From assembly GCF_054482525.1 (NCBI RefSeq), contig NZ_CM137006.1: DNA of 64,000 nt. One strand, given 5' to 3'. Below are positions 24,001 through 30,000 of the stretch, piece after piece. Within the stretch, counting starts at the first letter, position 1. Each line of letters opens with the position of its first letter. The position numbers were made by a program.

Positions 24001-27000
24001 AAGGGATCAGTGAGCAAGAACTGAACGAATACCAGCAAAACGTTCAGCGCAGCCTCGATATCCAACAGCGTAGCGTTCAACAATTAGCGAACACCATTGT
24101 AAATAGTCTTATTCAATATGACGATCCTGCAGCATGGACTGAGCAGGAGCAATTGTTGAAACAAATGACGGTAGAGAATGTTAACACTGCCGTTAAACAA
24201 TATCTTTCTCATCCGGTGAATACCTATACCGGAGTATTATTGCCAAAATAATAACAGCCCCGTCAACACCTCGTTGGCGGGGATTTTAGCAATATTCGCC
24301 ATTTTTATGTAATAATTTTATAAATGCGTTCAAAATAATAGCCGAGTGCTAATAATGATATTTTAAGGTCTGATTTTTACGCGATAATTCATGAGGCATA
24401 GAAAGCGCATAAAAATAACAACATAAAACACCTTACTACCACCCAACAATTCTCTATTGTATTGTTTTTTAATGAAAAAACATTATTCGCGCAATATTTC
24501 ACGATAAATAACATTAGGATTTTGTTATTTAAACCCGAGTCCTTTGCACTTGCTTACTTTATCGATAAATCCTACTTTTTTAATGCGATCCAATCATTTT
24601 AAGGAGTTTAAAATGGATAAGAAGCAAGTAACGGATTTAAGGTCGGAACTACTCGATTCACGTTTTGGTGCGAAGTCTATTTCCACTATCGCAGAATCAA
24701 AACGTTTTCCGCTGCACGAAATGCGCGATGATGTCGCATTCCAGATTATCAATGACGAATTATATCTTGATGGCAACGCTCGTCAGAACCTGGCCACTTT
24801 CTGCCAGACCTGGGACGACGAAAATGTCCATAAGTTGATGGATTTATCCATTAACAAAAACTGGATCGACAAAGAAGAATATCCGCAATCTGCAGCCATC
24901 GACCTGCGTTGCGTAAACATGGTTGCCGATCTGTGGCATGCGCCTGCGCCGAAAAATGGTCAGGCCGTTGGCACCAACACCATTGGTTCTTCCGAGGCCT
25001 GTATGCTCGGCGGGATGGCGATGAAATGGCGTTGGCGCAAGCGTATGGAAGCCGCAGGCAAACCAACAGATAAACCAAACCTGGTGTGCGGTCCGGTACA
25101 AATCTGCTGGCATAAATTCGCCCGCTACTGGGATGTGGAGCTGCGTGAGATCCCTATGCGCCCCGGTCAGTTGTTTATGGACCCGAAACGCATGATTGAA
25201 GCCTGCGACGAAAACACCATCGGCGTGGTGCCGACTTTCGGCGTGACCTATACCGGTAACTATGAGTTCCCGCAACCGCTGCACGATGCGCTGGATAAAT
25301 TCCAGGCCGACACCGGCATCGACATCGACATGCACATCGACGCCGCCAGCGGTGGCTTCCTGGCACCGTTCGTCGCCCCGGATATCGTCTGGGACTTCCG
25401 CCTGCCGCGTGTGAAATCGATCAGTGCTTCAGGCCATAAATTCGGTCTGGCTCCGCTGGGCTGTGGCTGGGTTATCTGGCGTGATGAAGAAGCGCTGCCG
25501 CAGGAACTGGTGTTCAACGTTGACTATCTCGGTGGTCAGATTGGGACTTTCGCCATCAACTTCTCCCGCCCGGCGGGTCAGGTGATTGCACAGTACTATG
25601 AATTCCTGCGCCTTGGTCGTGAAGGCTATACCAAAGTACAGAACGCTTCCTACCAGGTCGCTGCCTATCTGGCGGATGAAATCGCCAAACTGGGGCCGTA
25701 TGAGTTCATCTGTACCGGTCGCCCGGACGAAGGCATTCCGGCGGTTTGCTTCAAACTGAAAGATGGTGAAGATCCGGGATACACCCTGTATGACCTCTCT
25801 GAACGTCTGCGTCTGCGCGGCTGGCAGGTTCCAGCCTTCACTCTCGGCGGTGAAGCCACTGACATCGTGGTGATGCGCATTATGTGTCGTCGCGGCTTCG
25901 AAATGGACTTTGCTGAACTGTTGCTGGAAGACTACAAAGCCTCCCTGAAATATCTCAGCGATCACCCGAAACTGCAGGGTATTGCCCAGCAGAACAGCTT
26001 TAAACATACCTGATAACGTTTAACGGTAACGGTGTCCCGAAACGCACCCGTTTCGGGACAATTTCCAAAGTCTGTTCACTGGCATTAGCAACGGAAAATA
26101 TTGTTCTGAATACGCTTCAGAACAAAACAGGTGCGGTTCCGACAGGAATACCGTTTTAGGGGGATAATATGGCTACATCAGTACAGACAGGTAAAGCTAA
26201 GCAGCTCACATTACTCGGATTTTTTGCCATAACGGCATCGATGGTAATGGCTGTTTATGAATACCCTACCTTCGCAACATCGGGCTTTTCATTAGTCTTC
26301 TTCCTGCTATTAGGCGGGATTTTATGGTTTATTCCCGTGGGACTTTGTGCTGCGGAAATGGCCACCGTCGACGGCTGGGAAGAAGGTGGTGTCTTCGCCT
26401 GGGTATCAAATACTCTGGGGCCGAGATGGGGATTTGCAGCGATCTCATTTGGCTATCTGCAAATCGCCATTGGTTTTATTCCGATGCTCTATTTCGTGTT
26501 AGGGGCACTCTCCTACATCCTGAAATGGCCAGCGCTGAATGAAGACCCCATTACCAAAACTATTGCAGCACTCATCATTCTTTGGGCGCTGGCATTAACG
26601 CAGTTTGGTGGCACGAAATACACGGCGCGAATCGCTAAAGTTGGCTTCTTCGCCGGTATCCTGTTACCTGCATTTATTTTGATCGCATTAGCGGCTATTT
26701 ATTTGCACTCCGGTGCCCCCGTTGCTATCGAAATGGATTCGAAGACCTTCTTCCCTGACTTCTCTAAAGTGGGCACCCTGGTTGTATTTGTTGCCTTCAT
26801 TTTGAGTTATATGGGGGTAGAAGCATCTGCAACCCACGTCAATGAAATGAGCAACCCAGGGCGCGACTATCCGTTGGCTATGTTACTGCTGATGGTGGCG
26901 GCAATCTGCTTAAGCTCTGTTGGCGGTTTGTCTATTGCGATGGTCATTCCGGGTAATGAAATCAACCTCTCCGCAGGGGTAATGCAAACCTTTACCGTTC

Positions 27001-30000
27001 TGATGTCCCATGTGGCACCGGAAATTGAGTGGACGGTTCGCGTGATCTCCGCACTGCTGTTGCTGGGTGTTCTGGCGGAAATCGCTTCCTGGATTGTTGG
27101 CCCTTCTCGCGGTATGTATGTGACTGCGCAGAAAAACCTGCTACCCGCTGCGTTCGCCAAAATGAATAAAAATGGCGTGCCAGTAACGCTGGTTATTTCT
27201 CAGTTGGTAATTACTTCCATCGCGTTGATTATCCTCACCAATACTGGTGGTGGTAACAACATGTCCTTCCTGATCGCACTGGCGCTGACGGTGGTGATTT
27301 ATCTGTGTGCTTATTTCATGCTGTTTATTGGCTACATTGTGTTGGTTCTTAAACATCCTGACTTAAAACGCACATTTAATATCCCTGGTGGTAAAGGGGT
27401 GAAACTGGTCGTGGCTGTTGTCGGTCTGCTGACTTCAATTATGGCGTTTATTGTTTCCTTCCTGCCGCCGGATAACATCCAGGGTGACTCTACCGATATG
27501 TATGTTGAATTACTGGTCGTTAGTTTCCTGGTGGTACTTGCCCTGCCCTTTATTCTCTATGCTGTTCATGATCGTAAAGGCAAAGCGAATACCGGCGTCA
27601 CTCTGGAGCCAATCAACAGTAAGAACGCACCAAAAGGTCACTTCTTCCTGCACCCGCGTGCACGTTCACCACACTATATTGTGATGAATGACAAGAAACA
27701 CTAACCGTGGCTGAATGGTTATAAGACAAGGGAGCGATAATTCATCGCTCCCTTTTTCGTGCTCGCTGTCGTATTGACTTAACCGGGATAAGTACGAGAA
27801 TGAGCGCACATCTGTTTACCGGAAACCAGCATATATGGATATCTGCTCCCGAAACGAGAAATTAGCGATTAGAAGACCAGCGGTACTGGTTGCACTGGCA
27901 CTTTTACTGTGTAGTTGCAAAAGCACGCCTCCAGAGTCAATGGTGACACCACCAACAGGTTCGAAGCCACCAGCTACGACGCAACAATCGTCACAACCGA
28001 TGCGTGGCATCTGGCTGGCTACGGTGTCTCGCCTCGACTGGCCACCGGTTTCCTCGGTTAACATTAGTAACCCCACCAGCCGGGCCCGTGTACAACAACA
28101 GGCGATGATCGACAAACTGGATCATCTGCAACGTCTCGGCATAAACACGGTCTTTTTCCAGGTCAAGCCGGACGGTACCGCCCTGTGGCCATCGAAAATT
28201 TTGCCGTGGTCCGATCTTATGACCGGAAAGATTGGTGAAAATCCAGGTTACGATCCGCTGCAATTTATGCTCGACGAAGCCCACAAGCGTGGGATGAAAG
28301 TACACGCCTGGTTTAACCCCTATCGCGTATCGGTTAATACGAAGCCCGGTACTATCAGGGAACTGAATAGCACTCTGTCTCAACAACCAGCGAGCGTCTA
28401 TGTGCAACACCGCGACTGGATCAGAACGTCCGGCGATCGCTTTGTCCTCGACCCGGGCATCCCTGAAGTTCAGGACTGGATCACATCAATAGTCGCGGAA
28501 GTGGTTTCCCGCTATCCGGTAGATGGCGTGCAGTTTGACGACTATTTCTATACTGAGTCACCAGGTTCACGGCTAAATGATAACGAAACGTACCGCAAAT
28601 ACGGAGGCGCATTTGCGTCAAAAGCAGACTGGCGGCGCAACAATACTCAGCAGTTAATTGCGAAGGTATCGCACACCATTAAAAGCATTAAGCCGGAAGT
28701 CGAATTTGGCGTTAGCCCGGCAGGCGTGTGGCGTAACCGATCACACGATCCGCTCGGTTCCGATACCCGAGGCGCGGCAGCCTATGACGAATCCTATGCT
28801 GACACCCGTCGATGGGTGGAACAAGGATTGCTGGATTACATTGCTCCCCAAATTTACTGGCCGTTCTCACGGAGTGCCGCGCGTTATGACGTGTTGGCAA
28901 AATGGTGGGCGGATGTCGTTAAACCGACCAGGACCCGCCTGTATATCGGTATCGCCTTCTATAAAGTGGGTGAACCTTCAAAGATAGAGCCAGACTGGAT
29001 GATTAACGGCGGCGTACCGGAACTGAAAAAACAGCTCGATCTTAACGATGCCGTGCCAGAAATTAGCGGCACAATCTTGTTCCGTGAGGACTATCTGAAT
29101 AAACCGCAGACTCAACAAGCGGTTAGCTATCTGCAAAGTCGTTGGGGCAGTTAAACTCCCATTCTTACTTTGTAACAAGCCGGTGCTTTCCCCCCGGCTT
29201 GTAACCCTCTTGAAATATCCCACTAGTAATCATGCTTACTTAAGTCAAATTAACTACGCAATTAACCACACTTAGTTAAACAGTCATAAATCCCCTAATA
29301 AAAATGTATGAATATGAAAAAACATACGATATTCGCTGTCACCGAAAAATAATTACGATGGGCTATACTCTTCTGAAGAACAGTAGCGTAGATTGAAACT
29401 GTCCTAAGTCGCTTATTTGTTTTCAGTATATCTTCATATTTCAGGAGAATATGGTGCAGTTAGTCGATCTCGCACGTTGCGTTTCGTTTTGATTCCGTCT
29501 GCTTTCCCAGCCTTATAAGGGTGTGAATTATGGAGATGTATTTTAAAAGAATGAAAGATGAGTGGACCGGGCTTGTCGAACAAGCAGATCCGCTCATTCG
29601 TGCTAAAGCCGCGGAAATTGCCGTTGCGCATGCCCATTATCTGAGTATTGAGTTTTACCGAATTGTCCGTATCGACCCGCATGCCGAAGAATTCTTGAGT
29701 AATGAACAAGTTGAGCGGCAGTTGAAAAGTGCGATGGAACGCTGGATTATTAACGTGCTTTCTGCCCAGGTTGACGATGTCGAAAGGCTAATACAAATCC
29801 AGCATACCGTCGCGGAAGTGCATGCCCGCATAGGAATTCCGGTAGAAATTGTCGAGATGGGGTTTCGGGTGCTGAAAAAAATCCTCTATCCGGTCATCTT
29901 CTCTTCGGATTATTCCGCCGCAGAAAAACTTCAGGTCTACCATTTCTCTATTAACAGTATTGATATCGCTATGGAAGTGATGACCCGCGCGTTTACCTTT

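Follow-up and report, generated by a model that had tools for sequence, protein, structure and literature searches.

Judging from its sequence, the segment 24514-27704 of the window (the whole 64-kb stretch of DNA analysed here) is almost certainly the canonical gadBC operon of Escherichia coli under its native promoter; this operon forms the core of glutamate-dependent acid resistance (AR2/GDAR). These coordinates, proposed in a preliminary description, run exactly from the first base of the GAD box to the last base of the gadC stop codon, and no sequence evidence argues against the canonical identity. The locus is ordinary, because it is intact, lies at its usual chromosomal place, carries the known GAD box and occurs in essentially every E. 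coli genome. The gadBC region (24200-27800) had a match in 5425 of the 5426 complete E. coli genomes; in 5383 of them, at least 80% of it lay at one place. Earlier work in K-12 has already characterised the operon, its GAD box and the RcsB/GadE mechanism, as well as the nearby genes ydeP-safA-ydeO. The locus matters as annotation only: the strain carries an intact, canonically wired gadBC, and the finding adds no new biology. Since the operon is intact and canonical, the strain probably has the full glutamate-dependent acid-resistance phenotype that serves E. coli survival of stomach passage.

Coding sequences and operon layout

Identity, integrity, position and synteny of the operon were established directly from the DNA and its alignments. 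The genes and hairpins were located as follows:

24613-26013, + strand: gadB, PLP-dependent glutamate decarboxylase beta of the group II decarboxylases, 466 aa (annotated as gadB in PCN033)
26033-26060, + strand: 12-bp G+C-rich hairpin just past the gadB stop, with no T run (RNA fold)
26101-26125, + strand: second, A+T-richer hairpin of 10 bp in the gadB-gadC spacer (RNA fold)
26169-27704, + strand: gadC, glutamate:GABA antiporter (APC superfamily), 511 aa
27728-27757, + strand: gadBC intrinsic terminator, AAGGGAGCGAT-AATTC-ATCGCTCCCTT and then TTT (RNA fold; T run read directly)

The preliminary description had called gadB and gadC intact, and both genes were indeed full length, contained no internal stops and passed the NCBIfam equivalog cut-offs. 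GadB scored 692.7 bits against TIGR01788 (cut-off 380.4; profile positions 1-430 of 431), and GadC scored 1027.2 bits against TIGR00910 (cut-off 673.5), covering residues 1-511 of 511 with the C-terminal tail included. Both genes were checked for frameshifts, premature stops and a gadA/gadB chimera, and none was found. The GadB protein was 100% identical to K-12 GadB, with 0 amino-acid differences; all 33 nucleotide differences between the two genes were synonymous, indicating strong purifying selection. Its N-terminal residues were of the GadB type (K3, Q5, V6, L9, S22), not the GadA type. GadB also matched PDB 1PMM over its full length (residues 1-466), and both K276 (in SGHKF) and H465 were present. 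From the 1PMM/1PMO structures, we take K276 to be the PLP-binding lysine and the C-terminal H465 to be part of the pH switch. A longer, TTG-started open reading frame from 24544 in the ORF list was rejected as the gene start, being an upstream extension in the gadB frame.

The gadC gene showed 97.6% nucleotide identity to K-12, and 509 of 511 GadC residues were identical, the only differences being I417V and Q485K. GadC matched PDB 4DJI/4DJK over its full length (4DJI: residues 1-511). Q485K lies in the C-terminal segment, which in 4DJI serves as a pH-dependent plug.

The layout was that of an operon: gadC comes directly after gadB on the same strand, a single promoter precedes gadB and a terminator lies past gadC, and by analogy with K-12 the two genes would be co-transcribed. 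The gadB-gadC spacer measured 155 bp, as in K-12, and contained a single SNP, located in the loop of the 26033-26060 hairpin. This hairpin had a folding energy of -21.4 kcal/mol (z = -4.3), and none of 200 shuffles was equally stable; it may be an internal attenuator or an mRNA-stabilising hairpin. The second hairpin (-11.1 kcal/mol, z = -3.5) was identical in K-12, and the terminator-like scan detected it as well, on the minus strand. The terminator after gadC had an 11-bp stem and a folding energy of -18.6 kcal/mol (z = -3.5). It was not listed by the consensus terminator scan; our guess is that the scan included the flanking A-U pairs in the stem, so that the remaining tail had too few T. 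Most of the 12 hits of that scan were disregarded, as they lay inside coding sequence. An Rfam scan of the whole window found no RNA family in or near gadBC, and its sole hit was the fdnG SECIS at 55034-55092.

The gadB promoter region

The following elements were located upstream of gadB:

24366-24385, + strand: putative GadX/GadW-motif-like site AGGTCTGATTTTTACGCGAT in the distal gadB regulatory region (motif match)
24514-24533, + strand: GAD box, the predicted RcsB/GadE heterodimer activator site, exact 20-mer TTAGGATTTTGTTATTTAAA (by homology)
24550-24578, + strand: gadB core promoter, with -35 TTGCTT (24550-24555), a 17-bp spacer and -10 TACTTT (24573-24578)
24563-24572, + strand: repressing RcsB box CGATAAATCC within the core promoter spacer (exact limits inferred from the text of PMC2887963)
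24586-24587, + strand: probable gadBC transcription start, by homology (box centre 24523.5 plus 63 bp)
24601-24606, + strand: Shine-Dalgarno AAGGAG, 6 nt before the gadB ATG (read from the sequence)

A 20-bp GAD box had been described about 80 bp upstream of gadB; we found the exact 20-mer, with 79 bp between it and the gadB ATG (24613). With up to 3 mismatches allowed, no second match occurred on either strand of the 64 kb, and 100 shuffles yielded no match at all (0 expected). When aligned with the characterised K-12 gadB promoter element, the box occupied the same alignment columns with 20/20 bases identical, and it was likewise 20/20 identical at the homologous position in K-12 gadA and in four other E. 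coli gadB promoters. The stretch from the box to the ATG carried one substitution relative to K-12 gadB, at 24535. The 20-mer also equals the published GadE site, TTAGGAttTTgTTATTTAAa (PMC4918353). In gadA and gadB the -35 starts 16 bp past the GAD box (PMC2887963), and here 16 bp (24534-24549) separated the box from the TTGCTT hexamer, in agreement with the published position. The centre of the GAD box has been published at 63 bp upstream of the transcription start (PMC2887963), which would place the start about 26-27 nt before the gadB ATG. By analogy with K-12, the box is probably bound by the RcsB/GadE heterodimer and needed for GadE-dependent activation.

The core promoter region 24550-24578 was identical to K-12 gadB, and its hexamers matched the sigma-70 consensus at 3/6 (-35) and 3/6 (-10) positions. 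The leftmost base of the RcsB box was C, compared to G in gadA, which fits the gadB RcsB box described in PMC2887963. The Shine-Dalgarno sequence was identical in K-12 gadB and gadA, and four other E. coli gadB promoters shared the GAD box, spacing, -35, RcsB box, -10 and Shine-Dalgarno. A sigma-70 consensus scan, which returned 6 hits against a shuffle expectation of 5.9, did not flag the gadB promoter; this is expected, because the promoter is activator-dependent and has 6/12 consensus matches. Since their number equals the shuffle expectation, the 6 hits were disregarded; one of them, the pair CCGACA/GATAAT at 26139-26168, just before gadC, was rejected as an internal promoter, being no better than chance.

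Farther upstream, AGGTCTGATTTTTACGCGAT matched 19/20 positions of the ChIP-exo GadW/GadX motif, AKGKCTGWTWTTWWYMYVAK (PMC4918353), and was the sole match within the window. The motif search is statistically weak, as one match or more with up to 2 mismatches also turned up in 30 of 100 shuffles; K-12 has the site at the homologous position with 1 difference. GadX/GadW may bind at 24366-24385, a suggestion that draws on homology to K-12, not on statistics.

For binding, the start of transcription, the activities of the enzyme and the transporter, and regulation, we rely on work in K-12, from which the following mechanism can be proposed. The RcsB/GadE heterodimer at the GAD box would activate the weak gadB core promoter, with GadX/GadW sites farther upstream also belonging to the regulatory region, and the RcsB box overlapping the promoter spacer would mediate repression when RcsB levels are high. 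A bicistronic gadBC mRNA would then yield two proteins, GadB and GadC. GadB, a PLP-dependent hexameric decarboxylase, would convert glutamate and H+ to GABA and CO2, consuming a cytoplasmic proton, and GadC, an antiporter active at acid pH, would bring glutamate in and carry GABA out. The ydeO gene, about 11 kb upstream, would join the same circuit via the EvgA to YdeO to GadE cascade. The genes gadE, rcsB, gadX/W and rpoS all lie outside the 64-kb window.

Genomic neighbourhood and promoter variation

Three further acid-resistance genes, all on the same strand, were present in the window:

10170-12449: ydeP
12697-12894: safA
12969-13730: ydeO, whose end lies 10.8 kb upstream of the GAD box

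The preliminary reading of this region, which had grouped gadBC with ydeP-safA-ydeO as a dispersed acid-fitness neighbourhood, is fair, since these genes belong to the same AR2 system. The Acid Fitness Island (AFI) itself spans slp to gadA, about 15 kb, and in K-12 it lies about 2.1 Mb from gadBC. None of its genes (slp-dctR, hdeAB-yhiD, hdeD, gadE-mdtEF, gadW, gadX, gadA) was annotated in the PCN033 counterpart of window positions 2582-64000. The gadBC operon belongs to the same regulon and is a known locus of its own, outside the named AFI. The gene order ydeP-safA-ydeO-ydeN-ydeM-yddA-yddB-pqqL-gadB-gadC-digH-dosC-dosP was identical to K-12, and the ydeP-to-gadC arrangement is simply the ancestral K-12 gene order.

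We considered whether the ydeP-to-gadC stretch might instead form a second AFI, a coherent acid-fitness island inherited as a unit and not a set of unrelated neighbours, and regard this as improbable. The ydeP, safA and ydeO genes form the EvgA-controlled branch of the AR2 system, and together with gadBC they are part of the EvgA/YdeO/GadE network of acid resistance (PMC4283999); moreover, ydeN has been shown as a GadX regulon example beside gadBC (PMC4918353), and the gene order is conserved between the strain and K-12. However, the stretch between ydeO and gadB is interrupted by five genes without a known acid-resistance role, namely ydeN and ydeM (a sulfatase and its maturase), yddA and yddB (ABC transporter, TonB-dependent receptor) and pqqL (a peptidase), and the PCN033 and K-12 annotations of the stretch show neither mobility genes nor repeats at its bounds. 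In strain AR_0085, a deletion removes ydeN'-pqqL, and the two ends of the stretch are therefore separable. Under either view, the arrangement has already been described for K-12.

Variation in the promoter region was then compared among genomes. Near the GAD box, the only lineage-specific feature was the A>C change at 24535, which lies 2 bp downstream. About 20 substitutions lay between 24270 and 24500, and the pqqL-gadB spacer was about 97% identical to K-12 (mean column identity). Only 3 of the 5426 genomes carried the 173-bp promoter haplotype at 24440-24612 at 100% identity, and the others were 90-99% identical; about half of the genomes were only 90-95% identical over the 173 bp before the gadB ATG. 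The differences from this haplotype lie upstream of the GAD box.

Such variation might mean that the operon is intact and its regulation has shifted in this lineage, with the upstream substitutions altering GadX/GadW/H-NS or RcsB/GadE occupancy and hence the level or timing of gadBC expression; we consider this somewhat less probable still than a second island. The candidates are the change at 24535, which lies inside the -50 to -76 footprint and whose C was absent from the five other gadB promoters aligned, and the substitutions at 24270-24500, in a spacer that diverges from K-12 and a haplotype that is rarely found exactly. However, the GAD box, -35, RcsB box, -10 and Shine-Dalgarno are all unchanged. 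At the equivalent of 24535 and the adjoining positions, K-12 gadA and gadB have nothing in common, and because both genes are GadE-activated, this position is unconstrained. Upstream of the box, the variation is of the ordinary kind seen between phylogroups, and FDAARGOS_1286 differs even more there. A more specific form of the proposal holds that the haplotype, made up of C at 24535 in the RcsB/GadE footprint and the substitution cluster around 24340-24500 (GadX/GadW/H-NS region), has a measurable effect on gadBC expression, and hence on acid survival, in this PCN033-like extraintestinal lineage. This seems to us a shade less probable again; GadC Q485K in the C-terminal plug could act alongside the haplotype. 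The last alternative, that the GAD box is a chance A+T-rich 20-mer without function, for which only the A+T richness of the spacer speaks, is practically negligible and already refuted by the shuffles (no match even at 3 mismatches), by positional homology with the experimentally mapped K-12 site and by the invariance of the box across diverged promoters, including the paralogous gadA promoter with its differing flanks.

Comparison with known systems

The canonical gadBC operon described here corresponds most directly to gadBC of K-12 MG1655 (b1493-b1492), with the same gene order, strand relationship and neighbours, and with identical GAD box, -35, RcsB box, -10, Shine-Dalgarno, spacing and gadB-gadC spacer length. 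It differs from the K-12 locus by about 2.4% synonymous or non-coding nucleotide divergence, by GadC I417V and Q485K, by the A>C change at 24535 and by scattered substitutions upstream of the box. The promoter of K-12 gadA, the AFI paralogue on which RcsB/GadE heterodimer binding was demonstrated (PMC2887963), shares the identical 20-bp GAD box, the 79 bp to the ATG, the -35, the -10 and the Shine-Dalgarno. In contrast, gadA lies at another chromosomal location (next to gadX), the sequence flanking its box differs on both sides, and 5 N-terminal residues differ between K-12 GadA and the GadB found here. Three sequenced E. coli, PCN033, SCU-102 and 19KM1776, were 100% identical over 24200-27800. 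Between the PCN033 chromosome and window positions 8200-64000, only 10 positions differed; positions 1-2581 had no match to the corresponding PCN033 segment, so the window stems from a close relative and not from that very assembly, a difference irrelevant for the gadBC locus.

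The gadB promoter and its GAD box

The gadB-gadC operon and its associated elements are located as follows.
24514-24533, + strand: GAD box, a 20-bp RcsB/GadE activator site
24613-26013: gadB, with its ATG start at 24613
26033-26060: strong 12-bp hairpin in the gadB-gadC spacer (-21.4 kcal/mol, z = -4.3), without a T run
26101-26125: weaker hairpin in the gadB-gadC spacer
26169-27704: gadC
27728-27757: terminator directly 3' of gadC, a hairpin with an 11-bp stem and a T run behind it

The GAD box was read from the sequence as TTAGGATTTTGTTATTTAAA, the published asymmetric GadE site (PMC4918353). 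Allowing up to three mismatches, the 20-mer was unique on both strands of the window, and no match to it was obtained in 100 dinucleotide-preserving shuffles. We aligned the window's pqqL-gadB spacer to its K-12 counterpart, and a wider alignment additionally included IAI1, FDAARGOS_1286, SW071610 and the K-12 gadA promoter. The motif occupied the same alignment columns as the box of the characterised K-12 gadB promoter (20/20 identical) and ended 79 bp from the gadB ATG, confirming the preliminary description, which had placed it about 80 bp upstream. Position 24535, 2 bp past the box, carries the only difference from K-12 between box and ATG (A>C). The box, the 16-bp gap to the -35 element (TTGCTT), the -10 element (TACTTT) and the Shine-Dalgarno sequence AAGGAG were invariant across the wider alignment, with most gadB promoter variation lying 5' of the box; the flanks of the box in the K-12 gadA promoter were wholly different from those in gadB.

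The published geometry places the box centre 63 bp upstream of the transcription start and 16 bp upstream of -35, with an RcsB box just upstream of -10 whose left end in gadB is C rather than G (PMC2887963), and the gadB promoter in the window showed this geometry. Counting from the box centre (24523.5), transcription would start at 24586-24587, giving a predicted leader of about 26-27 nt. The core promoter matched the sigma-70 consensus at just 3/6 plus 3/6 positions, suggesting that it depends on activators. GadE reportedly activates >50-fold and GadX <2-fold (PMC4918353). By analogy with K-12 work, GadX and GadW would add a smaller activation from sites upstream, and high RcsB would repress through the RcsB box in the promoter spacer. 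A motif-like GadX/GadW candidate site lies at 24366-24385, proposed from homology to K-12 and not from statistics.

Separately, a deletion in E. coli AR_0085 (L009, our handle for NZ_CP029741.1; 1338-2600) fuses a truncated ydeN straight to the gadB promoter, so that ydeM, yddA, yddB and pqqL are lost together with about half of the GAD box, on its left side, leaving the promoter intact from about box position 12 (window 24525) on. This natural half-deletion could be used for testing box function.

The gadB and gadC products

Both genes were intact, as originally described, each exceeding its NCBIfam equivalog cut-off (GadB, TIGR01788, 692.7 versus 380.4 bits; GadC, TIGR00910, 1027.2 versus 673.5 bits) and matching a solved E. 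coli structure over its full length (1PMM and 4DJI, respectively). Compared with K-12, gadB differed at 33/1401 nt, all synonymous, so the encoded GadB is unchanged; it retains K276, the PLP lysine, as well as H465. The N-terminal residues were GadB-type and not GadA-type, ruling out a gadA/gadB chimera. The mechanical ORF list gave a 489-aa ORF from a TTG at 24544; this was rejected as an upstream in-frame extension, since 24613 is the start both as annotated in PCN033 and by alignment to K-12. In gadC, 37 nt differences produced two residue changes, I417V and Q485K. The 155-bp gadB-gadC spacer had the K-12 length and one SNP. As in K-12 work, GadB would consume one proton per glutamate decarboxylated and GadC would swap external glutamate for GABA.

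Other features of the window

Window 1-2581 was unmatched by the otherwise near-identical PCN033 chromosome, identity beginning at 2582, and only 5/5426 genomes carried at least 80% of 1-3000 in one place. ORF 230-1588 (+ strand) encodes a secretin (PF00263, GspD N0 and Secretin_N domains), and the best-matching E. coli genomes annotate a secretin, zonular occludens toxin (Zot), hypothetical proteins and an HTH protein here; by gene content, the segment resembles the terminal part of an inovirus-like filamentous prophage. Next to ydeP is a chaperone-usher fimbrial operon that seems intact (3420-9831: fimA-like major subunit, chaperone, 883-aa usher, ydeS, ydeR, ydeQ); in K-12, ydeT, the usher gene at this site, is presumably a pseudogene.

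Between ddpF and osmC, directly adjacent in K-12, lies a block of about 6.8 kb (39573-46339) encoding a divergent LysR regulator, CoA-transferase subunits A and B, acetyl-CoA acetyltransferase, 3-hydroxyacyl-CoA dehydrogenase, a GntP-family permease and 3-hydroxybutyrate dehydrogenase; the block resembles an accessory cluster for using acetoacetate/3-hydroxybutyrate. The fdnG frame appears split into ORFs 52627-55038 and 55087-55674 because of a UGA selenocysteine codon, marked by an Rfam SECIS_3 match within the gene (55034-55092, - strand; 84.3 bits, gathering score 63). Region 57046-60891, between yddG and narU, holds an intact 366-aa porin, named 'ompC' in the PCN033 annotation, and leucine-rich-repeat protein genes, one a fragment; we take it to be the K-12 yddL/yddK/yddJ region, where the porin is a fragment.

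Distribution, strain differences and synteny with K-12

Megablast matched 24200-27800 in 5425/5426 complete E. coli genomes, 5383 of which held 80% or more of it at a single location; gadBC is a textbook locus, already known and present in virtually every E. coli. Identity was 100% in three genomes (PCN033, SCU-102 and 19KM1776), and just 10 positions separated the window from the PCN033 chromosome across 8200-64000. The strain-specific content of the locus is very little. The 173 bp 5' of the gadB ATG were 100% identical in just 3/5426 genomes and 90-99% identical in the others, with the differences located 5' of the GAD box; the C at 24535 falls within the -50 to -76 RcsB/GadE footprint at a position unconserved between gadA and gadB, and GadC Q485K sits in the C-terminal tail. 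Neither the promoter haplotype, nor the C at 24535, nor Q485K is evidence for altered function. Retuned gadBC regulation in this lineage is very improbable.

The genes ydeO, ydeP and safA, 11-14 kb upstream of gadBC, are part of the EvgA-controlled branch of the acid-resistance system that also includes gadBC (PMC4283999), and ydeN is cited beside gadBC as an example of the GadX regulon (PMC4918353). Five genes without known acid-resistance roles interrupt the stretch from ydeP to gadC. The neighbourhood is distinct from the named Acid Fitness Island, whose K-12 location is 3.655-3.668 Mb and which includes gadA, gadE, gadX and gadW. In PCN033 the order, on one strand, is ydeQ, ydeP, safA, ydeO, ydeN, ydeM, yddA, yddB, pqqL, gadB, gadC, digH, dosC, dosP and ddpXABCDF. 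The proposed dispersed acid-fitness neighbourhood of gadBC with ydeP-safA-ydeO is an accurate description of genes that are present, in an arrangement that is ancestral K-12 synteny: K-12 MG1655 has the identical gene order at 1.566-1.586 Mb.
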